Of a DNA stretch of 64,000 nt, positions 12,243-64,000 are shown in pieces. Position numbers and translations under genes: made by a program. The notes under the pieces were generated by a model. It was given only the letters and a program-made list of their open reading frames with translations. It searched no databases and was not told where the DNA came from. Position 1 is the first letter of the stretch. Each line of letters begins with the position of its first letter. The DNA is from Escherichia coli (GTDB taxonomy: Bacteria > Pseudomonadota > Gammaproteobacteria > Enterobacterales > Enterobacteriaceae), in the NCBI GenBank assembly GCA_902500055.1, contig GCA_902500055.1_4131.1. One strand, 5' to 3'.

Positions 12243-12253
12243 TTTTTAAAATG

Positions 12254-12877: not shown

Positions 12878-12897
12878 AATGATCTCCTTTCAGATAT

Positions 12898-13722
12898 TTA
12901 TTTTAGTTTAGGTTGTGCTTTGCTTAGTGGTGATTTAGAATTAGATGCAGTAGTTTTTGGTGCTTTAACATCTTTCATTTCACCGCGAGCATTTTTACCA
13001 AGATCTAGACTATCTTTTGGTAGAACAGATTTATCATCTAGGTCTAGTAGTGGTGCTTGGTCAGTTTTCTTAGCGAATTTAACTGGCTCTGCTCCTGCTA
13101 CTGGAGATTTAGCTTCTGGTGCTACTGGAGATTTGGAATGAGTGCCAGCTTTTTCTTTCTTATCAACTGGAGCAACTTTTTCTAGTTTGAAGGATTCACC
13201 GAATTTTTCATCACCGAATTCAACATCAGCAAATTCGTCGTCACCGTCAACGCCAACTTCTTCTTCGCTATCTTCTACTTCTTCTTCAGAATCTAGATCA
13301 ACTTCACCGTCACCGATTTCATCAAACATTTGTTGTAGGCCACGGAAAGCATCTTGGATTGATTCCCATTGGTCTTCGGAAGGAACATCAGCATCAGCTT
13401 TCACTTCAACGTCAACATCGTCTTCACCGTCACCATCTTCATCAGCAGAGAATTCAACTTCTTCTTCTGCACTTTCATCTTCTTCACCAAGGGTGTATTC
13501 GATTTCAGCATTTAGACCTTCGTCTGGTTGTACATCAAAATCTTCGTCAAGCTTTTCTTCATCTTTGACTTCACAATCTTCATCTTCCATGCTTTCTTCT
13601 AGTTGTTTGTTAATTTCTTGAGCTTGCTCAACGAAATACTTACGCATTTTTTTATCAGCAATATCTTGTTCGCCATTTGCAAACGCCGCAATTGCTTCTT
13701 GTAGTAGTTTTAAATTCGCCAT
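12898..13722 (-). CDS. highly acidic prohead core / internal protein (gp68-like)
   Basis: Extremely Asp/Glu-rich low-complexity protein between portal and protease genes; start moved to ATG 13722 (MANLKLLQEA...) which has GGAGGA 5 nt upstream. Functional call is positional. Confidence 0.4.
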   Translation of the reverse strand: MANLKLLQEAIAAFANGEQDIADKKMRKYFVEQAQEINKQLEESMEDEDCEVKDEEKLDEDFDVQPDEGLNAEIEYTLGEEDESAEEEVEFSADEDGDGEDDVDVEVKADADVPSEDQWESIQDAFRGLQQMFDEIGDGEVDLDSEEEVEDSEEEVGVDGDDEFADVEFGDEKFGESFKLEKVAPVDKKEKAGTHSKSPVAPEAKSPVAGAEPVKFAKKTDQAPLLDLDDKSVLPKDSLDLGKNARGEMKDVKAPKTTASNSKSPLSKAQPKLK

Positions 13723-13823
13723 TATATCCTCCATAGATATATTACATTCGTATAAAGTATGATATTATTTAGTACTGAATAAAATCGCCTTTTTTAAAAG
13801 CTTTAAAAAGTGCGATTTTTGAT

Positions 13824-14051
13824 TTACATTAACCCAGAACCGTCACCTGTTGGTGCAGCGGCATAAACAACTGCAACCACATTTTTGCGGCGTTGTTCTT
13901 CATGTGCTTTAAATTCACGGTACTTTCTTAAGTTGTTTAATACTTGTAATGTTAGTTTCGGTTTTCTGGAATCAGTAATTTTATATACGTTCTGATCATC
14001 TTCAGGGTCGTACATTGAATCACTGCTAGATTCAAAGATGTCCTTTAACAT
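13824..14051 (-). CDS. small prohead core protein (gp67-like, positional)
   Basis: 75-aa ORF immediately downstream of the portal gene, as gp67 is in T4. Confidence 0.35.
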   Translation of the reverse strand: MLKDIFESSSDSMYDPEDDQNVYKITDSRKPKLTLQVLNNLRKYREFKAHEEQRRKNVVAVVYAAAPTGDGSGLM

Positions 14052-36537: not shown

Positions 36538-36585
36538 ATATCATAAATAAATCAAATGAATGAACGAATTATATGGAGTCCAAAA

Positions 36586-46557: not shown

Positions 46558-46565
46558 TAAAAAAA

Positions 46566-46597
46566 GGAGAGCATTATGCTCTCCTTTTCTTTTTTTA
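46566..46597. terminator. bidirectional terminator (GGAGAGCAT/ATGCTCTCC, A-run upstream, T-run downstream)
   Basis: Perfect hairpin between convergent giant structural gene (+) and ClpA-like gene (-). Confidence 0.65.
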
Positions 46598-48883
46598 TAC
46601 TAGTGCTTTATCTACAGCTTTGGTACGTTTCGGCTTAATACCGATTTTACCATCAATAACATCAAATGTAATGTTACCACCATTCACAAGTGAACCACAC
46701 AACATTTCTTTAGCTAGTGGTACACGAATGTTTTGTTCAATGGTACGTTTCATTGGACGTGCACCCATGCCAACTTTTACCCCATTTTTCGCAAGCCATT
46801 CACGTGCAGCTTTTGTTAATGTAACTTTAACATTACGGTCTTTGACTTGTTCATTCAAACCACCCATGAACTTATCAATGATGCTGTCAATAGCTTCACT
46901 GCTTAGGTCTTTAAACGTAACGATACTATCAATACGGTTAATAAACTCTGGTGGCAAGAATGCTTTAATTGCCTTGTCCTGTGCAGTGTCACTACCGCTC
47001 ATACCAATGCTACGCTTTGTTGAATCAGCCGCACCAAGGTTTGTAGTCATAATAACAGTTACGTTATTAAAATATACAGTTTTACCTTGAGAACCAGTCA
47101 GACGACCTTCATCCAAAACCTGTAGGAAGGTTAGTAGTACTTTACGATCTGCTTTTTCAATTTCATCAAGTAACAGTACTGCATTAGGGAACTGCTCAAT
47201 TTTATCCAACAGTAAACCGTTACCAGAATCATGACCAACATAACCTGGAGGTGAACCAATTAGTTTAGAAACAGTATGTTCTTGAGAAAATTCTGACATA
47301 TCAAAGCGAATCAGTTCCGCACCAGTTGCATCTGCTAATGCTTTGGTAATTTCTGTTTTACCAGTACCAGATGGTCCAACAAACATAAATGCACCCTGAA
47401 CACTAGATTTGTCACGCAGTCCTGCACGAGCTACCATCACGTTATCAACTAATTTTTGAATAGCTTCCTCTTGACCGTATACACGTGAGCGTAGTGCATC
47501 TGGTAGATTACGCATACGATCACTTTCAGTACATGCAACCACGTTGATATCCAAATTGGCAATACCAGCAACAACTTCTTGAATCAAATTGGCAGTAATA
47601 AGCTTACTATTGTTGTCACGTGAACGAACTTTTGCAGCGGCAGCGTCCATTAGATCAATTGCTTTATCTGGGAAGTGCTTATTCTTCAGGAATTTATCAC
47701 TGAGAGAAATTACAGCATCCATTGCATCAGTTGTGAACTCAACATTATGGAATTTTTCATAAGTTGGTTTCAAACCATTAACAATTGCACGAGTTTCATC
47801 AATTGACGGCTCAACTACATCAATTTTCATAAAACGACGAGTTAATGCACTATCTTTCTCGATATTTTTACGATATTCATCATATGTTGTTGCACCAATT
47901 ACACGAATCTCACCACGTGAAAGTGCTGGCTTAAGCATATTGCTCATGTCCATAGAACCATTACTTGCGGAACCAGCCCCAACCATAATATGAATTTCAT
48001 CAATGAAAACAATAGTATTTTCACGTTTCTTTAGTTCTTTTAGCAAATTGTCGATGCGTTCTTCAAACTCACCACGATACTTAGTACCAGCAGTCAATGC
48101 ACCAACATTTAGTGAAAGAATTTCAACGTCTTTCAGGTGTTCAGGTACGTTGCCGTCAGCAATAGCTTGTGCAAGACCGTCGATGATTTGTGTTTTACCT
48201 ACACCAGCTTCACCAGTAAGAATAGCATTCTTTTTGGTTTTGCGAGCAAGAGTCTCAATCAATGCAGACAATTCTTTCTGGCGACCAATCATAGGATCTA
48301 GTTTGCCTTCTTTTGCAAGAGCAGTTAGATTCGTTGTATAGTCTTCCAAACCTTTTTGTTTAGATGATTGCTGCTGTTGGGCCACTTTTTTATCTCCAAT
48401 CGGTTCGTCATTAATACTTTGTAAGTTGATACCCTTATCAAGTGACTCAACGTGTTTTTGCAATGCACGTGCAGCTTCAGTACAGCTAACACCTTCTTCT
48501 TTCAACGCAGCTTCTAGTGCTGTGTTAGGGAAAGACAGACATTCGAATAGAACAAAATATGCATCAATCGAAAAATCATCACTTTTTAGTTGTTCAATAA
48601 CTGATTTTTTAGAAAGCTCATGTACAACGCGATTCACTAGAAGTGAAGTGCGATTCGCGTCTTCATCTTTAACACTTTTTGGTGCATGTGGAACTGTTGT
48701 ATTTTTAAGATAGTTCATCAGGCGGTTGTGCAGTTTGTCTGCATCAATGTTCATATCTTCAAATACGTTCTTGATGCTATCAATAGTCAGTACTGTGGCA
48801 CTTACGTGGTCAATAGTCAAGAATGTATGACCTAGAGATGTTGCCAGTTCGTCGCTTTTTTTGAACAATTGAGTAAGATTCAT
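46595..48883 (-). CDS. clpA: ClpA-like double-ring AAA+ unfoldase (Clp/Hsp100 family)
   Basis: Two nucleotide-binding domains: Walker [10 protein letters not shown] and Walker B VFIDEIH; second Walker [10 protein letters not shown] and Walker [10 protein letters not shown]; KRSIGM loop and [12 protein letters not shown]-terminus closely parallel E. coli ClpA (RKSIGL ClpP-docking loop, AMGARPMARVI); no long ClpB-type middle domain. Start set to ATG 48883 with AGGAGA upstream (track start 48904 is GTG). Confidence 0.85.
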
Positions 48884-48993
48884 GTATTCTCCTATGTGAT
48901 TCACGTCACTCTAATTAATAAACATTATATCACATTCTTACGGTTTGTCTACAAGGTAAATAAAGATATACCCGATTTATTTTGGAGACAAAC

Positions 48994-50487
48994 ATGACAT
49001 ATAGAATGTGGAAAAAAGGTAGAACCAATGATTACAAGTTCATTGATTCTGCCATTGCTGAACAATACAACATTGGTGGAGTTGACATGTGGCTTTATGC
49101 ATATGTCGGTCCAAAACAAGTTGCTGACAACACTGACTTATCCTATGGAGGTGATTATACATCTTCAGGATCAGTTGTGTCAAGTATTGGCGATTTAATT
49201 TTTGGTGACACACCAAACAGAAACTACAACCTTGAAGCTATCACACTTAGTTGTGTCTATCAAGTTCAAGAAGCAACTCCAGACTTGAAAATCCCAGGAT
49301 TGTTCTTTAATTTCAACACTATGGACATCACAATCCATTATAATACAATGATGCAGCGTTTAGGTAGAAAAATCATGCCAGGGGATGTGATAGAACTACC
49401 AAATTTACGTGATTTTGATGTATTGGGTAAAGATACAGGTCTAAACCGCTTCTATGTCGTCCAAGATGCATTTCGTACATCTGAGGGATACTCGGTTACG
49501 TGGCAACATCACATTTATAAACTTAGAGTTAAACCGCTAACCGACTCACCTGAGTACTCCGATTTACTCGGTAACAATAATTATCCTGATAATCCAGATG
49601 ACCCTAATAATGGTAATGGAAATACCGATGATGGTTCGTCGGAAAACAGTAACTATGGCAATGAAATGGATATCATGAACCGTATCATCATGCAAGCTGA
49701 TGATGAAGTACCCTATATTCATTATACAAATGAACATTTGTATGATGATCGACCTGATACAGTAGATTTATCAAAATATATGCTTAACGGTTATGATTTT
49801 CCAGAAGAACCTGCCGATGGAATGTATTTTTTGAAAAAAACATACCCAGTACTCAAAGAGTTTGTTAATGATACATGGATTTCTGTGGAAGTCAAGCGTG
49901 GAACCATCTTTCCCAGAAAACCAATGGATGGTGACTTCTTCTTTAAAGAAAATGACGCAGATGTGACAGGTTATACGTTGTATCAATATGATAAAAGTGC
50001 TAAAAAATGGTTAAATTGTGATGTAGAATATACTACCAGTGATGTTCCACCAGAAGATGTGGAAGATTTTTGTATTTTTTATAAAGAACCACACATTTAT
50101 CAGTATAATGATGACAAGTGGGGGGAACCAAAGGTAACTTATGTCAATGAACCATTCACGTCCAATTGTGTATATGGTAATATTGATTCGCAACAAGATT
50201 ATCGTCCTAAAATTCCACCAGCACGAGGTACAGTCCCTGAAGGAAATATGTTCCCAACTGATGCAGTAGATGGTGACTATTTCTATCGCACCGATTATAC
50301 TCCAGTTACGTTATGGGAATTCAATGCAACTAAGAATTCATGGGTTATTTTTGATTATGGTGGAAGAAAACCGTGGGAAGGTGCAGACTTAGCACTTACA
50401 CAGTTTGTAAATAGTGATAACAAAGTTCCATTACATGACGCAGTTAAACCTAATACTGTTTATCGCATACATAAGGACACAGAATGA
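48994..50487 (+). CDS. hypothetical virion structural protein
   Basis: Track ORF starts at TTG 48982; ATG 48994 with GGAG upstream preferred. 498 aa; lies in the structural cluster; contains Asn/Asp/Gly-rich linker (NNYPDNPDDPNNGNGNTDDGSSENSNYG). Confidence 0.4.
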   Translation: MTYRMWKKGRTNDYKFIDSAIAEQYNIGGVDMWLYAYVGPKQVADNTDLSYGGDYTSSGSVVSSIGDLIFGDTPNRNYNLEAITLSCVYQVQEATPDLKIPGLFFNFNTMDITIHYNTMMQRLGRKIMPGDVIELPNLRDFDVLGKDTGLNRFYVVQDAFRTSEGYSVTWQHHIYKLRVKPLTDSPEYSDLLGNNNYPDNPDDPNNGNGNTDDGSSENSNYGNEMDIMNRIIMQADDEVPYIHYTNEHLYDDRPDTVDLSKYMLNGYDFPEEPADGMYFLKKTYPVLKEFVNDTWISVEVKRGTIFPRKPMDGDFFFKENDADVTGYTLYQYDKSAKKWLNCDVEYTTSDVPPEDVEDFCIFYKEPHIYQYNDDKWGEPKVTYVNEPFTSNCVYGNIDSQQDYRPKIPPARGTVPEGNMFPTDAVDGDYFYRTDYTPVTLWEFNATKNSWVIFDYGGRKPWEGADLALTQFVNSDNKVPLHDAVKPNTVYRIHKDTE

Positions 50488-51827
50488 AAATAGATTATTA
50501 TTATGACGGTCAATTTCGCAGAGTACTGAAACATCTTATCAGAGTTTTTGGTGAATTTCAAGTACAAAATGGTATTGATGCTAATGGAAACCCAAAATAC
50601 AAAAAGGTTCCATGTCGCTATGCCGATATTTCAAGAATGGCAGCAGCAATTATAAATGGGAATAGTGAAAATGTTCTCCCATCAGCACCTATAATGACCA
50701 TAAGTGTTAATCAACTAAAGTTGGATCGTAAAAATATTCGTTCTAATGCCAACGAAACTATAGTAATGGGGTCTAACAAGTCCCCTGCTATTAATGAGTA
50801 CACAAAAGATCTTGACACACAATACAAAATTGTAAGACATAACCCAGTACCTTGGACTTTTACGTTTGATTTGAATATTTGGGTAACTCAAACTCAAACT
50901 AAAATGGAATTATTCGAACAAATCTCAACTTTGTTTGCACCTAGTATACAACTTCAATTATCTGATAACCCGTTAGATTGGACATCGCTTAGTGATGTTG
51001 AACTAATAGATTGTCAGTTTTCTACTCGTGGTTTTCCACAAGGAACTGACCCAGATTTGGATATAATGGTTTTAACATTTGAAACGACAATATGGTTTTC
51101 TTTACCAGCTATTGTTGAAAAACCAAAATTAATCCAACAGATTACTACAAATATTAAAGGTGCTCGTGACGAATTTGATTTTGAAATGGGAAATTATTCA
51201 GATATAATAACAGATGTTTTTACACCCAAGAATTTATGCATTAAAGTTGAAGAAATTACTAATTCCAAGTATAATTTACCTGATACATACCAACTTACCT
51301 TGGTTAGCCAATCGCTATCTGCGGTTTCTCCCAACGGTGGAATATATTCATGGGAAAAATATCTTAAATATCTAGAACCAAATTTTGATGACAAAAAAGT
51401 AGGGATTAAATTTCAACAATCTATTGAAGAAGACAACCCACTAAAAGGTCATATAGCGTCGTATGGTGAAAATGAAGATGCCAACAAAATTATAGTACAG
51501 CTTGATAATACCAATTATACTGTTGATTACACTATACATGGGTTTGTGCAGAAAGATTCAGTACTTTCAAGTGCATTACCTGAACAATATTATGTAAATA
51601 ACAGTATACATAACATCATTTATAAAGAAACCGAAATCCCATCAAATTATTTGTTTAAAATTACAAATGATGGTGCACAATTAATTGATCCATCTACTGT
51701 ACGAAATTACATTTATAATAAAGAAGACAATGGTTATTATAGATATAATGACAAATTTAAATGGCATAAAAGTATCATGCCTGTGTATCGTCAGGGATAT
51801 TGGAAAATAACTTTCACTGACAAATAA
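50484..51827 (+). CDS. hypothetical structural protein (possible tail-tube-fold protein)
   Basis: 447 aa; start overlaps upstream stop (ATGA); functional call is weak positional inference. Confidence 0.3.
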   Translation: MKIDYYYDGQFRRVLKHLIRVFGEFQVQNGIDANGNPKYKKVPCRYADISRMAAAIINGNSENVLPSAPIMTISVNQLKLDRKNIRSNANETIVMGSNKSPAINEYTKDLDTQYKIVRHNPVPWTFTFDLNIWVTQTQTKMELFEQISTLFAPSIQLQLSDNPLDWTSLSDVELIDCQFSTRGFPQGTDPDLDIMVLTFETTIWFSLPAIVEKPKLIQQITTNIKGARDEFDFEMGNYSDIITDVFTPKNLCIKVEEITNSKYNLPDTYQLTLVSQSLSAVSPNGGIYSWEKYLKYLEPNFDDKKVGIKFQQSIEEDNPLKGHIASYGENEDANKIIVQLDNTNYTVDYTIHGFVQKDSVLSSALPEQYYVNNSIHNIIYKETEIPSNYLFKITNDGAQLIDPSTVRNYIYNKEDNGYYRYNDKFKWHKSIMPVYRQGYWKITFTDK

Positions 51828-51840
51828 AGGAGGTGTTGTT

Positions 51841-52305
51841 ATGAATGAAGCGGTTGGTGCTATATTTTTATCAAAAAGTACTGGACATATGATGTTAAAC
51901 TTGCGTTCTGAAAGAAGTACCTATTCTAACAACTGGGCATTTGTTGGTGGAAAGCTTGAACATAACGAAACACCACTACAAGGTCTGATGAGAGAAATTA
52001 AAGAAGAGTTGGGCAACTCAATACCTAACATTATTGATATTATACCGTTTGATGTATTTTGTACAAAAAATGGTAAATTTAAATATTATTCATTTGTTAT
52101 TGTAGTTGAGAATGAATTTGTACCAACTTTAAATCATGAAAGCTCTGGTTATGCTTGGGTTAGAATTGGTTCTTGGCCTAAACCATTACACCCTGGTGCT
52201 AAAAATACTTTACTTAACACAAACTTAATGAAAGATTTTTACTCACTATGGGAAAGTATACGTGAAGGTACACAGTTTGTCAACAGTTTACCATATAGAT
52301 ATTAA
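51841..52305 (+). CDS. Nudix hydrolase
   Basis: Nudix box GGKLEHNETPLQGLMREIKEELG (Gx5Ex7REUxEExGU). Confidence 0.8.
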   Translation: MNEAVGAIFLSKSTGHMMLNLRSERSTYSNNWAFVGGKLEHNETPLQGLMREIKEELGNSIPNIIDIIPFDVFCTKNGKFKYYSFVIVVENEFVPTLNHESSGYAWVRIGSWPKPLHPGAKNTLLNTNLMKDFYSLWESIREGTQFVNSLPYRY

Positions 52306-52313
52306 AACAAAAA

Positions 52314-52336
52314 GGAGCCGTGTGGCTCCTTTTTTT
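52314..52336. terminator. bidirectional terminator (GGAGCC-gtgt-GGCTCC + T7)
   Basis: Perfect 6-bp stem followed by TTTTTTT, between convergent Nudix (+) and 52335-53435 (-) genes. Confidence 0.65.
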
Positions 52337-53435
52337 ATACTCCAATAATCGGAATACCTGTAATATTTAACAACACGGATGCTTGTAGTTTAACGGATTC
52401 ACCAGCAGTTAGATTACTAATGCTACCATCAACTCGAAAACCTAAATTTTTATTTGAGTTTAGAGAATTGATAACCCAATTTTCATAATCAGCTTTAGAT
52501 GTTCCATTAGGATTTGGGATAGATGGATCTACACCATTAATAACAATATTTACGTCCCAGTTTGGGCGACTACTGGTAATAACATCTTTTATGGATTCTA
52601 ATTGTGTAATCCTACGTGGGTCTGGCATTTGACTTGCCCCCACCGAACCAGGAACAAAAGTTCCTTGATTATCTACATAAAATTGCCCTTTTATAAAAAA
52701 GGTTTTTGAATTGTATGGAAGAGAAACTATCTCACCAGAAGAATCATTTACTTCTCTAATCATAATTTTTAATTCATAGAAATAGTTGCTACCAAATTCA
52801 AAGACACCAGTACCATTAGTTAATGTTGTCCAGTTATTTGTATCTACTTGTGAAGTACCACCTAAGTTAAAATACGCAATTGGTTTAGTACTGTTACTTT
52901 GTGTGAACTCTATATATTTTTTACCATTATCATAGTTAATATCTAATAATGATGAATACTCTTTGTTTTCTGGTCTAGATGTTTGAATTTCACGCCATTC
53001 TTTGTTTTTCATTAACACACGAAGAGAATCACCGTTACTAGTTAATACCATACGACCCATAACACTATTTTCACCATCAGGTACTGTGTTAAAAACAGTA
53101 ATCATAGGGATAGCCGCCCATTCAGCTTCACTTACCATATCAGCAGGTTGTCTAGCATTATCAACTAATGATATCAATAACTCACCAGTACTACCAGTGT
53201 TTCTATACCAAAGTTGACCATTGACGTTGCCACGTGGTGCAGATGCTGAACTGAAATTTTCAACTAAATGTAAAAAGTTTTCGTTCCATGCTTGACCGTA
53301 ACTTACTTTATTTCTACCAACTAAATTTAACGGAACTGGGTTACTTCCGGGCTGGTTTGGTCCTAAAATAACATTATTTGGAATGGTAGCATAAACACTA
53401 CCATTACTTCTATAAATTGTATAATTAACACTCAT
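52335..53435 (-). CDS. hypothetical protein, probably tail/fibre-associated
   Basis: 366 aa, Asn/Gly/Ser/Thr-rich; last gene of an inverted three-gene block; RBS GGGGA. Confidence 0.35.
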   Translation of the reverse strand: MSVNYTIYRSNGSVYATIPNNVILGPNQPGSNPVPLNLVGRNKVSYGQAWNENFLHLVENFSSASAPRGNVNGQLWYRNTGSTGELLISLVDNARQPADMVSEAEWAAIPMITVFNTVPDGENSVMGRMVLTSNGDSLRVLMKNKEWREIQTSRPENKEYSSLLDINYDNGKKYIEFTQSNSTKPIAYFNLGGTSQVDTNNWTTLTNGTGVFEFGSNYFYELKIMIREVNDSSGEIVSLPYNSKTFFIKGQFYVDNQGTFVPGSVGASQMPDPRRITQLESIKDVITSSRPNWDVNIVINGVDPSIPNPNGTSKADYENWVINSLNSNKNLGFRVDGSISNLTAGESVKLQASVLLNITGIPIIGV

Positions 53436-53447
53436 TATATGTCCCCA

Positions 53448-54056
53448 TTATTGTAATTGTACACGAACTGTGTATTTAATTTGTAAGACACGGTTTGCAC
53501 TTTTCTCAACTGGGTGAAAAATGATATGGGTTAAAGGAATACCACTATCGCCATCCGTGTATAATCCCAATTCATCAAACACATAAGTTCCATCCATGCT
53601 TGTCCCTGAGCTTACACCTTGGTCGGATGGTTCACCTAACCCTAGAGTACAAATACATACAATATCAGTATAGGACTGTCCTGGTATATGTACAGTTGTA
53701 ATATTATTGTATTGTGAATCAATACCTGCCGTAATTCGTGGGTTGATTTTTTTCAAATATGTTTGTGAATACAAACCACCAAATGATGTAACACGTGGTT
53801 TTTTATAAGTAACACGACCAGTACTTAAAACTACTGTACCACCATTACCAAAACGCATCTCGCTAATAGAACCAATAGGAATACCAGTACTGTCTTGATT
53901 ATATGCTAACGCATTAGCAATGGCAGTACTCATATTTTCAGGGTGAATAGCGTTAGATTTATCTAAAACGATTTTTTGATTTGATGGATCAGTAACGTCA
54001 GTAATTAGGACATGACCTTTAACAAATAGTTTTGGTTGTTCTGTTTCTAATTTCAT
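53448..54056 (-). CDS. hypothetical protein, probably tail/fibre-associated
   Basis: 202-aa ORF with RBS AAGGA; middle gene of the inverted block. Confidence 0.35.
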   Translation of the reverse strand: MKLETEQPKLFVKGHVLITDVTDPSNQKIVLDKSNAIHPENMSTAIANALAYNQDSTGIPIGSISEMRFGNGGTVVLSTGRVTYKKPRVTSFGGLYSQTYLKKINPRITAGIDSQYNNITTVHIPGQSYTDIVCICTLGLGEPSDQGVSSGTSMDGTYVFDELGLYTDGDSGIPLTHIIFHPVEKSANRVLQIKYTVRVQLQ

Positions 54057-54065
54057 TTCTAATCC

Positions 54066-54563
54066 TTAGTAGTTAATTAAAATTTGTTCTAACTTCCCAG
54101 CTAAACTTTTTTGGACATCTGATGGATACTTACTAATATAATCACGGTCTATACCAACTTTAAGGTAAGTAAAATTACCAGTTACTGTTTCAGCAAATGT
54201 TCCGGTAGTTCCTTGTTGTCTAATTAAATCTCCACCATTTGGATTTAAAATAACCATATCAGTAAATTCAAGATAATAATTACAACTTTCAGTGAATTTA
54301 ATTGGAAACCAATCATCATCAGTAGGATTACTAGCTAATGTAGCTAACACATAAATTCTACCAATAAAATTACGTAGTGTAAATGAAATCGTATGTAAAC
54401 CTGTAGTACAGCCATAGTAGCCACCACTTGCTAGTGGTAACGTTTGTTCATTCCAGTGATAATCCAAGTTAGCTGGATACCAGCTATCAGATTCAGGAAA
54501 ATCTTGCCATGAACCATCTTTTGTTTTTCTTCTGAAGAGAAAGTCTTTTGATCTTAATGCCAT
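54066..54563 (-). CDS. hypothetical protein
   Basis: 165-aa ORF with RBS AAGGG; first gene of the inverted block. Confidence 0.35.
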   Translation of the reverse strand: MALRSKDFLFRRKTKDGSWQDFPESDSWYPANLDYHWNEQTLPLASGGYYGCTTGLHTISFTLRNFIGRIYVLATLASNPTDDDWFPIKFTESCNYYLEFTDMVILNPNGGDLIRQQGTTGTFAETVTGNFTYLKVGIDRDYISKYPSDVQKSLAGKLEQILINY

Positions 54564-54673
54564 TGTTTAAGCCCTTTTAGTAGTGAACTTTCATTTATTT
54601 ATTAATGATAACGAAATGTATTTTGTACTGATAAATATTGGTATATGACATTAACTCATACAAGGGAAATATT

Positions 54674-55801
54674 ATGACAATTTCATTTAACAATGGGTCC
54701 AGTGGTTCATGTAATAACTCCGGCATCAAAAGTCTAGTTATTAATGGTGCTGGGCATTTAATTGTAACCTATGCAGATAACACAATTCAAGATTTAGGTC
54801 TTGTTGTAGGACAGAATGGCGAGAATGGTAAAAACTTTTATCCTAATGAGATTGGTTTTGAAATTCCTTCCGAACAATTTAAAGTTGGTGAACCACTTGG
54901 GTGGTGCTACTTAAGCTTGGCTAACAACACCAGTACTCTATACTTTAAATCAAACGATGCACAAGATCCGACAAGTACATGGATTAGTGTTGAGTTTGGT
55001 AAAGGTGATACTGGTGAAGCGGGTAAGCCGTTCCACATTGATAGTGCTGGGACTACTTTCCCAACAACTGGTCTTTTTAATAACTATACATTTTATAATA
55101 CTCAAGATGGTAAGCTTTATTTCTATCAAAGTGTAACTGCCACTTGGAGTGATGGTATCCCTTTCCGTGGTGAACAAGGTCCGCGTGGTCGTTTCCATAT
55201 TGATAGTAGTGGTGATCAATTTCCAAGTATTGAAAATCTTCCAGTTGATTATTGTTTTTATAACAACACTGATGGAAAACTATATTATGTTGATGAAGTA
55301 ACTACAACTACCCCTCCTTCAAAAGAGTGGAGTGATGGTATTCTATTCCGTGGTAAAGAAGGTCAGCAAGGTATTCAAGGTATACAAGGCGAACCAGGTG
55401 CACCAGGTAAAGATACAATTTCTATTAGAAATACAATAGATAGCTCATGGACTAACGCACTATTAGTTATTGGTACGTGTCCTGCTGGATATGTAGTTTC
55501 TAATATTGATGTAAACGTTATACAACCTTATTCTCTTCCTGTAACTGATATGTTTGTACGTTTTGGTGGTGAAGCACAAGAAGATATTGGTGGGACTGTA
55601 ATTGCACCAACTTCCTACTTTGATATCAATCGTCAGATGCGTTTTATTGTTAATGAAACTAATCATGCAGCATCCGATGTTGATGAAATTATTTCATGTG
55701 TATTCAACGATTCTGTTAACAACAGTCCTTATGGAAAAATGGAAATTATTTGTACTCTTTCATGGCAAGCTCCTATCCAACCGATTCAAGATAATATTTA
55801 A
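54674..55801 (+). CDS. collagen-like repeat tail fibre protein
   Basis: Three copies of a ~45-aa motif (G-x-x-G-x-P-F-H-I-D-S-x-G-x-x-F-P ... Y-x-F-Y-N-x-x-D-G-K-L-Y-(F/Y)) each preceded by Gly-X-Y collagen-like tracts (GEQGPRGR; GKEGQQGIQGIQGEPGAPGKD). Start set to ATG 54674 (track start 54638 is TTG). Confidence 0.55.
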   Translation: MTISFNNGSSGSCNNSGIKSLVINGAGHLIVTYADNTIQDLGLVVGQNGENGKNFYPNEIGFEIPSEQFKVGEPLGWCYLSLANNTSTLYFKSNDAQDPTSTWISVEFGKGDTGEAGKPFHIDSAGTTFPTTGLFNNYTFYNTQDGKLYFYQSVTATWSDGIPFRGEQGPRGRFHIDSSGDQFPSIENLPVDYCFYNNTDGKLYYVDEVTTTTPPSKEWSDGILFRGKEGQQGIQGIQGEPGAPGKDTISIRNTIDSSWTNALLVIGTCPAGYVVSNIDVNVIQPYSLPVTDMFVRFGGEAQEDIGGTVIAPTSYFDINRQMRFIVNETNHAASDVDEIISCVFNDSVNNSPYGKMEIICTLSWQAPIQPIQDNI

Positions 55802-55815
55802 GGGAGGATGTCATA

Positions 55816-57957
55816 ATGGCAGTATTTTCTAATTTTGAAGGAACTATGCAGCCCAAATTCATATTGGGGAAAAAAGGTGCTTCAATAAATTTTATCAATG
55901 ATTCAGTTTCTATAAAAGATTATCTAGGAGAACAGTTCCTACCACTGAAGGTAGGAACTTCATCTGATCCTAATTCAGCAGTTAACGTAAAATATCTTGA
56001 AGATAACCCTAATGCATTATTTGGTGTTGTACCACCTACCGATGATATAGGAAAGAACAATAATACGTATTTTCAAATTGATGAAGATGGTATTGTTGAT
56101 ATTTTTGCAAAAAGCAATGGTACATGGGTAAAATCATTATACATTAATAAAAAAGTTCTATCCAGTAAAAATGGTGGAGATTTCATCGGACTTATTACTG
56201 GAGGTACAGTTCAACAGGCACAGTTTTATATAACACCAGAAGAATTTGGTGCTAAAGGTGATGGCGAAACTGATGACACTGCTGCTGTAAATTTATGTGC
56301 TGCTTATGCTAAAGAAAATAAAATCCAAATTCAGGCTGGTGGTAATTACCGTATCAAAACTGCAATATATCTGGAAGATGTAACTTGGTTTGGGGGAACT
56401 ATTACTGGTAACGGTGGTACTATGGTATCCGTTATTAATTCCCAAATACAATTTGCAACACTTACTGGATGTTATTTAAAATTCTTCGGCGGCGATGGTA
56501 AGTTTTATTTTAATAAATTTATAAACATCACAAGTACTGCTGCATTTTTAATGCAAGGTATGACACAACCAGGTACAATAGATTTTTGCTTTAATGAAAT
56601 GACCCAATGTAAGTATGGCGTTCTTCAACAAGGTACTGGTGAGAAAATGAAGGTTGGTAGATATTCATATAACCACATACATGATATATATGGTGATGCA
56701 ATTGAACTAAACGTAATTAACTCACACTATCCTGATGGTTTTGTTATTGAAGGGAACATAATTGAAAACGTTGATGGTTCTAACGCTCCAATCCCACTTT
56801 CAAACTGGGGTATTGGTATTGGAGTTGCTGGTTCTGGACCTTATGGTTTAGATGCACCAGACACACAATATGTAAGAAACTTTGTTATTAAAAATAACAG
56901 ACTATATAATGTTAGACAATGTATCCACGTTGAATTAGGCATGGACTTTAAAATACTTAATAATGAAGTTTATCCATCATCTTTAGTTTCTGTCGGTACT
57001 GGATTAACCACTGCTGGTGTTATAACTTATGGTTCTAAAGAATTCATTATTGATGGGTTGACTGGTCATTTGCTTAATGATCCTTCTATCACAAATAGAA
57101 TGGTTTCAATAAACTGGGGTGTAACTTCTGGTCGTTTTGCTGGACCACCTAGAAACTTTAAAATTTCTAATCTCTATATTCCAGAGTCTTCTATACTTGT
57201 TTATACTTCCGGTTCTGATAATTGGTTAAATAATACAGAATTGAGCAATATCACCTGTTCTAAAATTCTTTGGCGTGGTTTGCCATCATCATCTAAATTT
57301 AGTGATATTAGAACTAAAGAATTAGATGTAATTGGTCAACACCTCTCTACAGAAGGCGAAGGTGGTGGTATATATACTCGCTCTAAATATACTTATACTA
57401 ATTGGACTAACTGTGTTGTTCAAGATGATTGTAATGTTTCAAAATATAGTTTTTCTAAAATGTATGTAGACAGAATAGACCAATCATCTAATAACTTTAA
57501 AGTTACAACTGCAATCGATGGTACAGGTCACCGTGGCCCAGTACTGATACCTGTAGTTGAACAATATTATATTCCATATGATACTTTTCCAGGGGGACGC
57601 TATTTCTCTGAAGGCACGATTATTCATAAACAATCGGGTGGAAAATATATTGTAACTGTTGGTGGTTCTTTTTTCGGAAAATATGACACAATTAGACAAA
57701 CGGTAGCAGGACAAACATACATAGAAGCATTGGGTGTGTCATGGGGTGAAAACCAATATGCAAAAGCTGCTGGTACTGAGATTATTATATCTGGTGCTGG
57801 TGAAAATGGTGGTGATTTGAGAACGTATATAACTCGTGCAGTGTATGTTGTAAACAACGTATATAGAATTGATATTGCAGATCCTATCATAACAGCAACT
57901 GCCGCTGGTGCAGCATTAAAAGCCGCCCAACCCGTAACTTACATAACCCTACCATAA
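55816..57957 (+). CDS. tailspike with pectate-lyase-fold (right-handed beta-helix) polysaccharide depolymerase domain
   Basis: Signature ITPEEFGAKGDGETDDTAAVNLCAAYA typical of the pectate lyase superfamily N-terminal cap in phage depolymerases; N-terminal ~55 aa shared with the next gene; RBS GGGAGG. Confidence 0.7.
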   Translation: MAVFSNFEGTMQPKFILGKKGASINFINDSVSIKDYLGEQFLPLKVGTSSDPNSAVNVKYLEDNPNALFGVVPPTDDIGKNNNTYFQIDEDGIVDIFAKSNGTWVKSLYINKKVLSSKNGGDFIGLITGGTVQQAQFYITPEEFGAKGDGETDDTAAVNLCAAYAKENKIQIQAGGNYRIKTAIYLEDVTWFGGTITGNGGTMVSVINSQIQFATLTGCYLKFFGGDGKFYFNKFINITSTAAFLMQGMTQPGTIDFCFNEMTQCKYGVLQQGTGEKMKVGRYSYNHIHDIYGDAIELNVINSHYPDGFVIEGNIIENVDGSNAPIPLSNWGIGIGVAGSGPYGLDAPDTQYVRNFVIKNNRLYNVRQCIHVELGMDFKILNNEVYPSSLVSVGTGLTTAGVITYGSKEFIIDGLTGHLLNDPSITNRMVSINWGVTSGRFAGPPRNFKISNLYIPESSILVYTSGSDNWLNNTELSNITCSKILWRGLPSSSKFSDIRTKELDVIGQHLSTEGEGGGIYTRSKYTYTNWTNCVVQDDCNVSKYSFSKMYVDRIDQSSNNFKVTTAIDGTGHRGPVLIPVVEQYYIPYDTFPGGRYFSEGTIIHKQSGGKYIVTVGGSFFGKYDTIRQTVAGQTYIEALGVSWGENQYAKAAGTEIIISGAGENGGDLRTYITRAVYVVNNVYRIDIADPIITATAAGAALKAAQPVTYITLP

Positions 57958-57973
57958 AGGAGATTATATTAAA

Positions 57974-58870
57974 ATGGCAGTTTTTTCTAATTTAGAAGGA
58001 ACCATGAAGAAGTCCTTCATTCTTGGGAAGAATGGTGCACAGATTACCACAAATGGTAGTGTTGTGCAAATTCAAAACTACTCAGGAACACAACTTCTTC
58101 CAATTTCAGCAGGTGAACCAACTGCAAACACACACTTGGTTACATTGGGATATTTAAACGCACACAGTGGTGGTGGTAGTTCTGGTATCTTACGTGGAAC
58201 AACAGCACCATCCGATTCTATTGGTCTAGATGGTGACGTTTACTTTTTGGTTGATAGTACTAATGTTCTTCAAATTTATATTAAAGATCTTGGTATTTGG
58301 AAACCATTTAAAGGTAGCTCACCGGGAACTGATAGCTCATATGTAACTACTGAAATAGTTCCTGTTTCTGCATTTACATTAGTACCAGATACTACTGATC
58401 ATTATACTTACACACTACCAGAATCAGTTCATGGTAGAGGTTCTGATATTATGATTCAACTACAAGGTGACCCAGGTAATGTTGCATTGGAATCAGTATT
58501 CCAAACCACAGTAACAGTTAGTGGTATTGGGGATATAACAATTGATGTGATTGGTCAAATCACAGATTATGCAAGTGTTAAAGTAAACATTATAGGAGCA
58601 ACAACAATGACAGTACCTTATAGTAAATTAGTAAACCAAGCCGATTGGGTTTCTAGTGCTGGTGATTTCACAATCACTATTCCAGCATCCGAACACAATC
58701 AAACCCCAGATAATTTGTATATTTCAATTTATGCAAATAAAACACCTGGAAGTGTTGCGTCATCTCCATTCGAGTTGGTAGTGACTGATACACAAATTAG
58801 TAGTACTGGTGATGTAATCTTCACTTCTGATATTTCTTTCAGTGGTAAGATTGTCATCTCCGGTAAGTAA
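57974..58870 (+). CDS. tail fibre / receptor-binding protein paralog sharing the tailspike N-terminal anchor
   Basis: N-terminus MAVFSNLEGTMKKSFILGKNGAQI... parallels MAVFSNFEGTMQPKFILGKKGASI... of the preceding gene; C-terminal region diverges. Confidence 0.55.
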   Translation: MAVFSNLEGTMKKSFILGKNGAQITTNGSVVQIQNYSGTQLLPISAGEPTANTHLVTLGYLNAHSGGGSSGILRGTTAPSDSIGLDGDVYFLVDSTNVLQIYIKDLGIWKPFKGSSPGTDSSYVTTEIVPVSAFTLVPDTTDHYTYTLPESVHGRGSDIMIQLQGDPGNVALESVFQTTVTVSGIGDITIDVIGQITDYASVKVNIIGATTMTVPYSKLVNQADWVSSAGDFTITIPASEHNQTPDNLYISIYANKTPGSVASSPFELVVTDTQISSTGDVIFTSDISFSGKIVISGK

Positions 58871-58878
58871 CAAATTAA

Positions 58879-58909
58879 CCAGGCTTGTTCTAAATAAGTC
58901 TGGTTTTTT
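58879..58909 (+). terminator. rho-independent terminator (CCAGGCTT...AAGTCTGG + T6)
   Basis: 8-bp stem with one G-U pair, followed by TTTTTT, after the 57974-58870 gene. Confidence 0.5.
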
Positions 58910-59007
58910 ATTATATTTGCTTTTGTCAAATAATGTATTAATTGTTGGATAACAGCATAATAAAACTAAATATATACATATTAACAAGGTTATAATGGAG
59001 GGTATAA

Positions 59008-62000
59008 ATGTACTCAATAAAAACTGACTTAGATATTACTGGTGCTGGTACGGTTGGTAAGGATCTTTTAGTCAAAGGAAATGCTGTTTTCAATAATAAC
59101 CTAACTGTAAATGGTACTGTAACTTTTGCAAATGCAACTTTTACTGCCATTGAATCATCAACTGCCAATATTACATCTACTTTAGATGTAGGTGGCAAAG
59201 CAACACTTTCTGGTGGTCTTGGTGTTGAGGGTAATACTACAATCGGTAGTGCAGTGGTCGGGTCTGATACAGCAACAATTAATTCAAACGCTACCTTTAA
59301 CGGTACTGTATCAGTTGGTTCTGATTTTACACAAACTGCTGGTACAACCACTCTACAAGCAACTAAAGTTAAAAACTTAGAAGTTGCTGAAACAACAGCA
59401 TTTAAAGGTAATATTACTGCTGATGTTGGTACTACTGCTGCATTTGATAAAATTACTGCTAATACCGCAGAAATTACTAATGTAAGTACAACCGATATTA
59501 GTAGTACTGGTACTGCTACATTTAAAGATGTGACAATTAGTGGTACACTTGGTGGTGAGTTTAATCTATCTGACTTAAATGCAGTAACATTGAACGTTAC
59601 TGGTGCATCTAACCAACAAGGTGCAGTAACTTTCGGTGCTAACGTAACTGGTATTAACAGTACTGCTACTTTTAAAGACATTCGTATTGGTTCTAACTCT
59701 GAATCTCAAACCTTCAGATTAAGCTTCCCTTACACTGCTCCTGGTAAACGCCCAACTGTTATTCTACAAAACGAAATTCAGTCCGAGTTAATGTCACCTG
59801 CAAACTTAACAGTTTTGACATCTGCTTCTTTTGGTAATGCGTCATTATCTTCTTATGGTATTACTGGTAATGGTCTAAACAAATTAGATTATCTAACAGT
59901 TTCTGGTAACAATACACAATCACCAGACACCCCACTATTAGAAGTTCAAAAAGGAAAAACCAAAGTTGCCGATTTTGAAGTTACAGGAACCGCAACTATA
60001 CCAAATATTGAAAGTACTGGAACTGCTAATTTTAATAATATTAATATTTCTGGTGTTCTTGGTGGAACATTCCAACTAGATGATATTAATGCAGTAACAT
60101 TGAACGTTACTGGGGCCACTTCGTTAGTTGGTGGTGTTACTCTTGGTTCTAATATTACTGGTTATAATAGTACTGCTACCTTTAAAGCTATTAGCTTAGG
60201 TCAAAATAGTCAAGATGCAGCAGTGAAACTAGGTTTTGGATATACTGCACCCGGTCAACGCCCAACAGTTATTCTACCTAATGAAGTTCAATCAGAAGTA
60301 GTTTCTCCTTCTACATTGAACGTTCTTAAAACTGCAACTTTTGGTAATGCGTCATTATCGTCTTATGGCATTACTGGTAATGGCCTAAACAAATTAGATT
60401 ATCTAACAGTTTCTGGTAACGAAACACAAGCTCCAGATACACCACTATTAGAAGTTCAAAAAGGAAAAACCAAAGTTGCTGACTTTGAAGTCACCGGAAC
60501 TGCAACTATACCAAATATTGAAAGTACTGGAACTGCTAATTTTAATAATATTAATATTTCTGGTGTTCTTGGTGGAACATTCCAATTAGACGATATTAAT
60601 GCAGCATCTTTGAACGTTACTGGTGCAACTTCATTAGTTGGTGGTGTTACTCTTGGTTCTAATATTACTGGTTATAACAGTACTGCATCATTTAAAGCTA
60701 TCAGCTTAGGCCAAAGTAGTCAAGATTCTGCTGTAAAACTTGGATTTGGATATACTGCACCAAGTCAACGTCCAACCGTGATTTTACCTAACGAAGTTCA
60801 ATCAGAATTAGTTTCTCCTTCAACACTGAACGTTCTAAAAACGGCAACTTTTGGTAATGCTGCACTTTCTACGTATGGTATTACTGGTAATGGCCTAAAC
60901 AAATTAGATTACCTAACCATTACAGGTAACGCAACACAAGACCCTAGTACACCATTCCTACAAGTTGGTGGTAAAGCAATTCTTAATGATGTTGAATTTA
61001 CTGGAACAGTAACTGGGTTAACTGTTGATGTAAGTGGTCAGGATCTAACACCAAACTCAGTTGTTGCTGCGACAAATATTAAAGGTGCAACCCTTGAAAG
61101 TACTGGTAACACTACTGTGGGTGCTAAACTAACTGTTACTGGTGATATTGCTGGTACAACTGCAACTCTTTCTGGTGCATTATCTGCTGGTTCAATAAGT
61201 TCTGGTGTTATTACTGGTACAACTTCAGTTTCAGCACCAACAATTAGTGCATCTACTGAAGTAACTGCTCCTACTATCACTGCTAGTGGGACTTTAAGTG
61301 GTCAAACTATTAACGGAACTAATATTAGTGCAACAACTCTTACTGCACCAACTATTAGTGGTAATACAAACTTTACAGAAAATGTTGATATTACTGGCAA
61401 CCTAACCGTTACTGGCACAGTAACGCCAGGTACGATTGATTTGAGCACAACTGATGTAAGTGCGAAATCTATTACTACTACCGCTGGTGCAAATATTGGT
61501 GGTGATCTTGTGGTTCAAGGTTCTTTTGATTTATCATCAGCAGACATTAGCGTTAAATCACTAACTGCTTCTGGTATTGTTAAAAGTAATGATCTTGTTA
61601 ATGCTAACGTACTTCCAGTACTTAATAGTACTACTGCAACAATTAATACTGTTAATGCAACTGAACTTGCGGTAACAGGTCCATCCAATCTAGCATCTGT
61701 TCGTACAAGTGCTGATGTTGTAGTCGGAACAACTTTAAATGTAAGTGGTGAAACAACAACTGCATCTCTAGTTACTCCATCTATTTCCAATGCAACTGGT
61801 GTTACAATTGGTAATAATACTTCTATCACTGGTGACTTAACTGTTAGTGGTGCTGTGATTCCTGGATCTATCGACCTAGCATCAACTGATGTTAACGCTA
61901 AATCAATCACAACAACTGCTGGTGCAACAATTGGTGGAAACTTAACCGTTAACGGTACAGTAGACCTAACTGCTGCTGATGTAACAGTTAAATCTCTAAC

Positions 62001-64000
62001 CAGTACTGGTGCAATCATTAGTAATGAATCAACTATTAGTAGTGTTCTACCTAAACTACAAAGTACTGATGCGACAATTGCAACTCTAGGTTCTACTACT
62101 GCGAATATTACTAATTTGAATGTAACTGGTGCAACTTCTGTTGCTGATGTAACATCTTCTGGTAAAGTTACAGCAGTTTCTATTGAAGTTCCAACCATTG
62201 GTAATACTGCGGGTGTATCTATTGCTAATAATACATCTATTACTGGTGACCTAACAGTTTCTGGTACAGTGACACCAGGTGCTATTGATTTAACAACAAC
62301 TGATGTTAATGCTAAATCAATCACAACAACTGCTGGTGCGACTATTGGTGGTGATCTTGTTGTTTCTGGTACAGTTGATTTAAGTGGTTCTGATGTATCT
62401 GTTAAATCTCTAACAAGTACTGGTATTATTACAGTTAGTAGTGCAGAAGGTATTAACGTTCTACCTAAAGTTCAAAGTACTGAAGTTACAGTGTCTGCTC
62501 TAAATGCAACAAATGCAGTAGTTTCTGGTGATGTTTCAGCAGCAACAGCTTCAATCTCAGGTGCAGTTACTGGTGGTTCAGCAACGCTATCTGGTGCTGG
62601 AACTGCTCTAAATGTAACTAATAATGCAACTGTCGGCGGTACACTTACTGTTGGTTCTATTACTTCAGCGGCAGAAAATGTATCCATTACTAAAAATACC
62701 GCTGTCACTGGTAATTTAGCAGTATCTGGAACTCTAACTGCTGGTGTTATTGATTTGAGCACAACTGATGTGTCTGTGAAGACATTAACTTCTCTAGGTG
62801 ATGCAACCGTTCAAGGTAACTTAACTGTTGATGGTTCTATTGACCTAAGTTCTGCAAACATCGTCGGTGTAACACTAGAAAGTACTGGCTCTACCACTGT
62901 AGGTACTGATTTGATTCTAACTACAGGTAACATTACAGGTAGTCCATCTATTTCTGGTAACTTGGGTGTTACTGGAACCACAACGTTAACTGGTGCAACT
63001 ACAGTTTCAAACACATTGTCAACTGGTGGTAAACTAACAGTTAATACTGGTGGTATTCAAGTAGTTGATGGTGGTATTCAAGTTGATGCAGGAACTATTA
63101 CCGCACCAAGTGCTAATATTTCTGGTGACTCTACCCTTAATAGTGCAACTGTAACTACTACCCTTGGTGTTACTGGTGCAGCTAGTATGAATGGTGGCCT
63201 TACAGCATCTACTCTAGATGTAACTGGTGACAGTACTGTACAAAAACTAACTGTTAAGGGTGCATTTATTCCTGAAGGTGGTTTGGACCTATCCGGTGCT
63301 GATCTTAACGTGAATAGCGTAACTGCTGCAACCACATTAAGTGTTACTGGTGCAAGTACTCTAACTGGTGGTGTTTCCACTTCAACTGTTACTGCATCCG
63401 GTAAGGTAACCTCACAAGAACTAAGTACTGGTACATTGGCAGTAACCACAAATGGAACAGTTGGTGGTACTTTAGATGTAACTGGAAAGGCAACAGTCGG
63501 TTCACTAGATTCAGGTGCAATATCTGCAACTTCTGGTACATTTAGTACTACACTAGGTGTAACAGGTGCAGCAACATTTGGTAACAATGTTAATATTACT
63601 GGCACGTTAACCCCAGGTGCATTGGATTTATCTAGTACTGATGTAGATGCTAACAGTCTTTCTGTTGCAACAACCCTACATTCAAACGGCAATGCAACAA
63701 TCGGTGGTACACTAGGTGTAACTGGTGCAGCAACTGCTCCATCAATCGCTCTTAATGGTGAAGGAACTGCATTAGCAGTTACTAACAATGCAACAATTGG
63801 TGGTACACTAGGTGTAACTGGAAAGGCAACTGTCGGTTCACTAGATTCAGGTGCAATATCTGCCACATCTGGTACATTTAGTACTACACTGGATGTAACT
63901 GGAGCAGCAACATTTGGTAACAATGTTAACATTACTGGCACATTAACACCAGGTGCATTGGATTTAACTAGTACTGATGTAGTTGCTAACAGTCTTTCTG
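59008..64000 (+). CDS. giant repetitive Thr/Gly/Ser/Asn-rich fibre-like protein, partial (at least 1,660 aa, continues past window end)
   Basis: Manual codon-by-codon translation from ATG 59008 (RBS GGAGGG at 58997-59002) shows no stop up to 64000: MYSIKTDLDITGAGTVGKDLLVKGNAVFNNNLTVNGTVTFANATFTAIESS... Contains three tandem ~170-aa repeats and many copies of motifs such as TPG(A/T)IDL(S/T)TTDV(N/S)AKSITTTAGA(T/N)IGG. Missing from ORF track because no stop lies in the window. Confidence 0.75.
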   Translation, partial: MYSIKTDLDITGAGTVGKDLLVKGNAVFNNNLTVNGTVTFANATFTAIESSTANITSTLDVGGKATLSGGLGVEGNTTIGSAVVGSDTATINSNATFNGTVSVGSDFTQTAGTTTLQATKVKNLEVAETTAFKGNITADVGTTAAFDKITANTAEITNVSTTDISSTGTATFKDVTISGTLGGEFNLSDLNAVTLNVTGASNQQGAVTFGANVTGINSTATFKDIRIGSNSESQTFRLSFPYTAPGKRPTVILQNEIQSELMSPANLTVLTSASFGNASLSSYGITGNGLNKLDYLTVSGNNTQSPDTPLLEVQKGKTKVADFEVTGTATIPNIESTGTANFNNINISGVLGGTFQLDDINAVTLNVTGATSLVGGVTLGSNITGYNSTATFKAISLGQNSQDAAVKLGFGYTAPGQRPTVILPNEVQSEVVSPSTLNVLKTATFGNASLSSYGITGNGLNKLDYLTVSGNETQAPDTPLLEVQKGKTKVADFEVTGTATIPNIESTGTANFNNINISGVLGGTFQLDDINAASLNVTGATSLVGGVTLGSNITGYNSTASFKAISLGQSSQDSAVKLGFGYTAPSQRPTVILPNEVQSELVSPSTLNVLKTATFGNAALSTYGITGNGLNKLDYLTITGNATQDPSTPFLQVGGKAILNDVEFTGTVTGLTVDVSGQDLTPNSVVAATNIKGATLESTGNTTVGAKLTVTGDIAGTTATLSGALSAGSISSGVITGTTSVSAPTISASTEVTAPTITASGTLSGQTINGTNISATTLTAPTISGNTNFTENVDITGNLTVTGTVTPGTIDLSTTDVSAKSITTTAGANIGGDLVVQGSFDLSSADISVKSLTASGIVKSNDLVNANVLPVLNSTTATINTVNATELAVTGPSNLASVRTSADVVVGTTLNVSGETTTASLVTPSISNATGVTIGNNTSITGDLTVSGAVIPGSIDLASTDVNAKSITTTAGATIGGNLTVNGTVDLTAADVTVKSLTSTGAIISNESTISSVLPKLQSTDATIATLGSTTANITNLNVTGATSVADVTSSGKVTAVSIEVPTIGNTAGVSIANNTSITGDLTVSGTVTPGAIDLTTTDVNAKSITTTAGATIGGDLVVSGTVDLSGSDVSVKSLTSTGIITVSSAEGINVLPKVQSTEVTVSALNATNAVVSGDVSAATASISGAVTGGSATLSGAGTALNVTNNATVGGTLTVGSITSAAENVSITKNTAVTGNLAVSGTLTAGVIDLSTTDVSVKTLTSLGDATVQGNLTVDGSIDLSSANIVGVTLESTGSTTVGTDLILTTGNITGSPSISGNLGVTGTTTLTGATTVSNTLSTGGKLTVNTGGIQVVDGGIQVDAGTITAPSANISGDSTLNSATVTTTLGVTGAASMNGGLTASTLDVTGDSTVQKLTVKGAFIPEGGLDLSGADLNVNSVTAATTLSVTGASTLTGGVSTSTVTASGKVTSQELSTGTLAVTTNGTVGGTLDVTGKATVGSLDSGAISATSGTFSTTLGVTGAATFGNNVNITGTLTPGALDLSSTDVDANSLSVATTLHSNGNATIGGTLGVTGAATAPSIALNGEGTALAVTNNATIGGTLGVTGKATVGSLDSGAISATSGTFSTTLDVTGAATFGNNVNITGTLTPGALDLTSTDVVANSLS
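59581..60960 (+). repeat. direct tandem repeat, period 510 bp (170 codons), about 2.7 copies, inside the giant fibre gene
   Basis: Copies begin at 59581, 60091 and 60601 (each starts GCAG(T/C)A...TTGAACGTTACTGG); copies 2 and 3 are near-identical over long stretches. Confidence 0.8.
63481..64000 (+). repeat. direct repeat, period ~340 bp, within the giant fibre gene
   Basis: ACTGGAAAGGCAAC(A/T)GTCGGTTCACTAGATTCAGGTGCAATATCTGC...GGTACATTTAGTACTACACT... occurs at 63481 and again at 63821 with few substitutions. Confidence 0.7.

Follow-up and report, generated by a model that had tools for sequence, protein, structure and literature searches.

A tandem array of large modules lies within a tail fibre gene at the 3′ end of a 64,000-nt stretch of DNA from Escherichia coli (assembly GCA_902500055.1, contig GCA_902500055.1_4131.1; the whole stretch is called the window below). 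By its sequence, the window is assigned to Asteriusvirus, a group of E. coli jumbo myoviruses with genomes of ~350 kb, PBECO4 and 121Q among them, and positions 40000–59000 share 98–99% identity with more than 20 Asteriusvirus genomes. The fibre open reading frame (ORF) begins on the plus strand with an ATG at 59008, with GGAGGG ahead of it, and remains open to position 64000, where the window cuts it; the part at hand is the 5′ 4993 nt, encoding at least 1664 amino acids (aa). It can be aligned without a gap over these 4993 nt with gp_304 of phage CRJP21 and CDS0665 of phage JP4 (95.6% identity), which are 2129 aa (6390 nt) at full length, and its orthologues include 121Q gp571 (‘long tail fiber proximal subunit’, 1841 aa), the 1959-aa protein of phage UB and phAPEC6 Gp256. 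A scan of the full-length, colinear CRJP21 orthologue matched PHROG 4549 (‘tail fiber protein’, E 9e-263), and by homology to this family and to 121Q gp571 the protein is a member of the Rak2-like/Asteriusvirus long fibre group. No Pfam family was matched at E ≤ 0.1 by either the window ORF or the full-length CRJP21 orthologue. The composition of the protein is dominated by Thr (19%), Gly (12%) and Ser (10%).

The genomic position of the gene agrees with this assignment. It follows the genes for a 298-aa virion protein and a colanic-acid-degradation-like protein, the families of which are matched by the window ORFs at 55816–57957 and 57974–58870, and the gene order around the fibre gene is kept in CRJP21, 121Q, UB, G17, A4, fEgEco12, CBB and GAP32. 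Mass spectrometry of purified virions has identified 15 peptides of phAPEC6 Gp256 (180 kDa) and 10 peptides of a more distant orthologue, CBB_226 (PMC7247149; PMC5259590). The window protein is thus presumably a virion protein by orthology, the detection by mass spectrometry being that of its orthologues.

Repeat finding and a scan of identity at fixed offsets both revealed the array, which Tandem Repeats Finder missed at its maximum period of 500. All features of the gene described here are on the plus strand. Positions 59495–60456 match the same gene at an offset of 510 nt (962 nt, 81% identity), and the score of this diagonal is 509.5, compared with a maximum of 20.5 in 20 codon-shuffled versions of the gene. 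A hidden Markov model (HMM) of the unit resolves three full head-to-tail copies at aa 160–329, 330–499 and 500–668, corresponding to window positions 59485–61014, and each copy is exactly 510 nt (170 codons) long and in frame within one ORF; the module is referred to as U170. Unit 1 (59485–59994, aa 160–329) is of type a and shares 99.6% identity with unit a in both PBECO4 and CRJP21. Unit 3 (60505–61014, aa 500–669) is of type b and shares 99.3% identity with the second of the two PBECO4 units. Between them, the HMM together with comparison to other phages identifies an extra, hybrid unit 2 (59995–60504) with a type b body, designated b*, and a type a tail. An initial annotation of this DNA, made from the sequence alone, had already described three consecutive 170-codon units in the fibre gene; it had placed them at 59581–60960, so the array stands, although its limits do not, the start having been set ~97 nt late and the end ~54 nt early.

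The same annotation had called copies 2 and 3 almost identical in their DNA and not just in their protein, and the reverse was found. Over the 450 nt compared, units 2 and 3 differ at 52 positions, with 88.4% identity in DNA and 90.7% in protein, so the protein is better conserved than the DNA. Of these differences, 33 fall at third codon positions and all substitution types are present; 36 are synonymous and 16 are non-synonymous, giving a synonymous divergence (dS) of 0.41 and a ratio of non-synonymous to synonymous divergence (dN/dS) of 0.12. The best local alignment of the two units reaches 87% identity over 714 nt, and the longest exact run that they share is 84 nt. Unit 1 is more distant, with 74.5% DNA and 71% protein identity to unit 2 and 66% DNA and 61% protein identity to unit 3, over 450 nt in each case. 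Units 2 and 3 have therefore been kept as protein and have drifted as DNA, and all three units are under purifying selection.

A comparison with related phages, which the initial annotation had proposed, shows that the copy number differs by whole units. Three U170 units are found in the window, CRJP21 and JP4, and two are found in the 12 other Asteriusvirus and Mimasvirus fibre genes that were counted (PBECO4, UB, 121Q, G17, slurp01, UE-S1, ph0011, A4, both fibre genes of fEgEco12, and CBB and GAP32, which belong to Mimasvirus). The length of the CRJP21 and JP4 genes (6390 nt) exceeds that of the UB gene (5880 nt) by exactly 510 nt, and the junctions between units are in register. Among the 32 phage records that gave a near match, only 2 have the three-unit form. 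Over gene nt 1–1950, which contain the array, the window differs from JP4 at 8 nt and from CRJP21 at 7 nt (99.6% identity).

These three genomes bear on whether the third unit is real. The initial annotation had named the repeats an assembly hazard. A spurious extra copy might come from misassembly of a two-unit gene, and 510-nt repeats with exact runs of 84 nt can indeed confuse short-read assemblers; moreover, several public records end in or beside the fibre gene. However, the extra unit is separated from both of its neighbours by at least ~12% divergence, which a duplicated pile-up of reads would not show, the ORF remains open, and the same three-unit array occurs in the GenBank genomes of CRJP21 and JP4, which come from different laboratories. 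Because it is 99.6% identical in three independently sequenced phage genomes, the array is a stable allele, and an assembly artefact is hardly credible. The same stability bears on the proposal that the array varies at high frequency by design, as a contingency locus or as the target of a diversity-generating retroelement. Its location in a host-interaction gene would suit such a system, but the unit is 510 nt long and no short repeat, the allele is fixed across the three phages, and the unit differences involve all base types and are mostly at third codon positions. None of the confinement to adenine that marks a diversity-generating retroelement was seen among the 52 differences, although no search was made for a nearby reverse transcriptase. 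Programmed variation of this kind is accordingly extremely improbable.

Other relatives extend the range of states. An exhaustive search of 1.84 billion representative proteins returned 11 relatives of the module, and a word-indexed protein search returned 6–9, too few for a deep alignment. Among these 11, P0010 (2120 aa) also has three units and is encoded by the second, paralogous member of a tandem pair of fibre genes that phages Turkey5 and JNE01 carry; in Turkey5, its gene (7491–13853 of locus L019) lies directly downstream of the first fibre gene, and the same gene also occurs in contigs of the European Nucleotide Archive (ENA). Since units 1 and 2, and not units 2 and 3, form the similar pair in P0010, the Turkey5/JNE01 array represents a separate event. 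The second fibre gene of fEgEco12, as counted above, has two units. At the other end of the range, a single unit is found in Serratia phage BF, in Yersinia phage fHe-Yen9-04 and in several metagenomic contigs. In two Logan contigs of separate sequencing runs that resemble ph0011, L016 (SRR20818753) and L017 (ERR13965906), an exact 510-nt deletion has left one hybrid unit, and collapse of k-mers during assembly is an unlikely cause because the deletion junction lies at the unit head, with only short matches.

The origin of the extra unit was examined by a base-level, three-way comparison of the window with units a and b of PBECO4, which share ~67% DNA identity with each other. Gene nt 1–1050 of the window are ~100% identical to nt 1–1050 of PBECO4, and from gene nt 1441 onward the window is again ~100% identical to PBECO4, now from its nt 931 onward, over the ~550 nt profiled; past nt ~1950 the identity drops to 87–93%. 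Within unit 2, the sequence passes from matching b to matching a of the two-unit alleles in a candidate junction zone at 60337–60447 (gene nt ~1330–1440), which is the patch of greatest likeness between a and b (83–90% in 30-nt windows). The middle unit is thus a hybrid of a b-type body and an a-type tail, with the switch where the two types closely resemble each other. The b unit of UB shares 94.3% identity with unit 2 and that of 121Q shares 93.4%, compared with only 88–90% for unit 3; in a neighbour-joining tree, unit 3 groups with PBECO4 and UB, and unit 2 with the 121Q group. The b* body would derive from an allele that has diverged by ~6% from the b unit found in UB and 121Q.

These relationships speak against a recent tandem duplication of one unit in place, possibly kept alike by ongoing gene conversion, as the initial annotation had it. 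Within the array, units 2 and 3 resemble each other most (87% over 714 nt, with exact runs of at most 84 nt), which speaks for such a duplication. Yet their dS is 0.41, each of them is closer to the orthologous units of other phages than to the other, and an array that is 99.6% identical in three phages is not fast-changing. The identity of the two b bodies over their first 64 nt is due only to the PBECO4-like sequence that both have in this part. A recent duplication in place is, on this evidence, very unlikely.

The third copy instead probably arose by unequal homologous recombination between diverged fibre alleles. The ancestral state in the genus would have been two copies, a followed by b. 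In a mixed infection, two diverged fibre alleles would have misaligned over the short segment of greatest similarity between a and b, the b unit of one lying against the a unit of the other, and unequal recombination at this point would have yielded an array of a, a b*/a hybrid and b in a gene exactly 510 nt longer. The three-unit allele has since been passed on as a block, by inheritance or by exchange. The extra unit would add 170 residues to each chain, ~8% of the protein, and would likely lengthen the fibre shaft.

A much older origin has also been considered, in which a triplication preceded the split of the PBECO4 and 121Q alleles, was kept here and was lost by deletion elsewhere. The coalescence of units 2 and 3 is about as deep as that of the b alleles of PBECO4 and 121Q, and exact one-unit deletions do occur, both of which would be expected under this scheme. 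It needs several independent losses, however, because every more distant Asteriusvirus or Mimasvirus gene has two units, and the near identity of unit 3 to PBECO4 b (99.3%) and of unit 1 to PBECO4 a (99.6%) is better fitted by a recent recombinant. An old triplication is therefore unlikely, if somewhat less so than a recent duplication in place.

Several points nevertheless weigh against unequal recombination between diverged alleles and against a longer shaft as its outcome. The crossover point cannot be fixed exactly, the junction zone being alike in both parents, and among sequenced two-unit phages b* has no exact match, the nearest b unit being 94% identical, which is why the two diverged parents are only inferred. 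An old duplication, with later divergence of the copies and replacement of part of the allele, could, strictly speaking, still account for the array. The L016 contig has a stop (TCA>TAA) and L017 a frameshift, both downstream of the one-unit deletion, so these contigs may represent errors from low quality or low coverage, or decaying, defective genes. An AlphaFold2 monomer model of units 1 and 2, built from eight sequences, was all-beta and had a predicted local distance difference test score (pLDDT) of 46.6, which makes it unusable. Finally, this protein may form either the six baseplate fibres or the ‘hairy’ tail whiskers described for phAPEC6 and CBB, between which the papers on these phages do not decide.

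Unequal recombination as a source of variation in fibre length, which the initial annotation had suggested, is well supported among these relatives, with steps of 510 nt and one to three units, but on an evolutionary time scale only. The mechanism is an ordinary evolutionary one, and the case is a new documented example of it and no new kind of system. At the level of sequence, it illustrates how a very long phage fibre can gain or lose whole modules when the genes of co-infecting relatives misalign and recombine, with one-, two- and three-unit states and two independent expansions in one gene. It also explains the length classes of 1841, 1959 and 2129 aa in public Asteriusvirus genomes. Although the three-unit allele is already in GenBank, no discussion of it was found in the published accounts of JP4, Sharanji, fEgEco12, phAPEC6 and CBB, which do not mention these internal repeats.

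Because gains have recurred independently (the window lineage and Turkey5/JNE01), losses to one unit have also occurred and the units are under purifying selection, the number of U170 units could conceivably be a selected ‘length dial’ for the unusual fibres or whiskers of these jumbo phages, although we regard this as doubtful. If it were so, the reach of the fibre, or how many sites it offers for accessory fibres to dock, would be tuned to the thickness of the host surface (capsule or O-antigen, for instance), and adsorption or host range might be changed by engineering the number of modules.

The remainder of the gene is also modular. The N-terminal region (59008–59484, aa 1–159) is kept across the phage group (MYSIKTDL...) and is presumed to be the attachment end. 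Downstream of the U170 array, four diverged units of 138–155 aa (61360–63060, aa 785–1351) are constant in number in all 10 genes compared. They are followed by units of 112 aa (336 nt) with ~90% DNA identity (63367–64000), the second of which is cut by the end of the window and continues beyond it. This 112-aa module is present in two strong copies in the window, PBECO4, UB, JP4 and CRJP21 and in one copy in 121Q, G17, slurp01, ph0011 and UE-S1, and its copy number, together with a 6-aa indel, accounts for the difference between the 1841-aa and 1959-aa length classes.

Identities along the gene switch from one partner phage to another, and the gene is thus a patchwork, with the three-unit array moving as a block. 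Positions 57501–59007 are 99.87% identical to slurp01, a two-unit phage, and 98.1% identical to CRJP21, and over the array region the order is reversed (99.6% to CRJP21 and JP4, 95.9% to slurp01). The bases are slurp01-like upstream and of the CRJP21/PBECO4 type from ~59169 onward, and a recombination boundary lies close to the start of the fibre gene (within 57501–59700). The backbone around the three-unit array is otherwise closest to that of a two-unit phage. Further along, 60958–62007 is at most 87.6% identical, and 62008–63007 at most 93.1% identical, to any record in the phage collection. This segment (60958–63007) comprises the linker and the four 138–155-aa modules in a version absent from the collection; its flanks are 98–99.9% identical to known phages, and it has a dN/dS of ~0.15–0.17 relative to JP4. 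The last 1 kb of the window is 98.4% identical to PBECO4, JP4 and CRJP21.

Upstream of the fibre gene, a hairpin with a 13-pair stem (58877–58905) is followed by a T-tract (58877–58915 in all, plus strand), one such element having been found where 0.1 were expected. In phage G17, a terminator is annotated at the equivalent site. This terminator-like element would close the gene of the 298-aa virion protein and leave the fibre gene as a unit of its own after the hairpin. Elsewhere in the window, a plus-strand ORF of 3333 aa (36556–46557) probably corresponds, by its size, to the phAPEC6 virion protein Gp245 (382 kDa). Inside the fibre gene, the minus strand carries ORFs of 247–287 aa at 58938–59681, 61515–62324 and 63078–63941, which are most likely by-products of a biased, repeat-rich codon content and not genes.

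Public records of this region show several irregularities. The PBECO4 record (KC295538 / NC_027364; locus L002) was opened inside the fibre gene, and KC295538 annotates three antisense ORFs in its place. Among four ‘Salmonella phage SD-’ records (SD-15_S21, SD-2_S15, SD-1_S14 and SD-6_S16), three end within 7 nt of the point that matches window position ~59000 and one ends inside the gene. These observations suggest that the fibre gene region often breaks assemblies or annotations. The assembly hazard that the initial annotation had attached to the repeats is only moderate, the longest exact repeat being 84 nt, and yet several public records do end in or at the gene. A further irregularity concerns JP4, in which the ‘colanic acid degradation’ gene is annotated at 606 nt (L004, 1344–1949) compared with 2142 nt in the window and in other relatives, which indicates that the JP4 record has either a deletion or a sequencing fault.

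With regard to structure, a phmmer search of all Protein Data Bank (PDB) chains with the full-length orthologue (E ≤ 1) found no solved structure covering the U170 module. The model mentioned above would make U170 an all-beta shaft module, a prediction to be read with the unreliability of that model. The fibrous composition of the protein and its modular build suggest that an additional module lengthens the shaft; an effect on host interaction may also be supposed. A match to the TamB profile (E 1e-4) and sub-threshold matches to Bactofilin in relatives were also considered and were set aside as a beta-rich, repetitive or compositional resemblance, not homology.

Among known systems, the closest are the Rak2-like long fibres (121Q gp571, phAPEC6 Gp256, CRJP21 gp_304, JP4 CDS0665, CBB_226 and GAP32_220), which share with the window fibre its genomic position, N-terminus and U170 modules, as well as its C-terminal domain if the colinear protein of CRJP21 is taken as a guide. 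The window fibre differs from them in having three U170 units in place of the usual two and in its middle region at 60958–63007, of which the phage collection holds no equal version. Like the window fibre, gp34 of phage T4 is a very long, Thr/Gly/Ser-rich fibrous virion protein of a contractile-tailed phage, and fragments of T4 gp34 are present in the PDB. The PDB search (E ≤ 1) gave only the fibre of Pectobacterium phage phiTE and thus no sign of homology to gp34, although no direct pairwise test was run. The label ‘long tail fiber proximal subunit’ in many records is an annotation carried over from GAP32, and ‘gp34-like’ should be read as ‘long fibre’ and not as homology to gp34.

The phiTE fibre gives no structure for the module, because, for the short and the long tail fibres that have been described, only N-terminal residues were built into the cryo-electron microscopy map (PMC11972413). 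In sequence, the C-terminal ~180 residues of the fibre are homologous to the putative tail fibre of phiTE (PDB 9CUY/9MJN chain g, 793 aa; i-Evalue 4.9e-13). A weaker match covers one U170-like segment and the shaft that follows it, and phiTE has at most one such segment.

Gains and losses of repeats are familiar from other phage genes. Distal fibre genes of T-even phages recombine at conserved motifs, collagen-like repeats change in the host-range proteins of Streptococcus thermophilus phages, and duplications in tape-measure genes lengthen phage tails. As in the window, these cases involve in-frame internal repeats, misaligned homologous recombination and gains or losses of an integer number of units. 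The window case differs in that any link to host range or to fibre length is putative, and in the size and place of its unit, a module of as many as 170 residues within the proximal shaft of the fibre.

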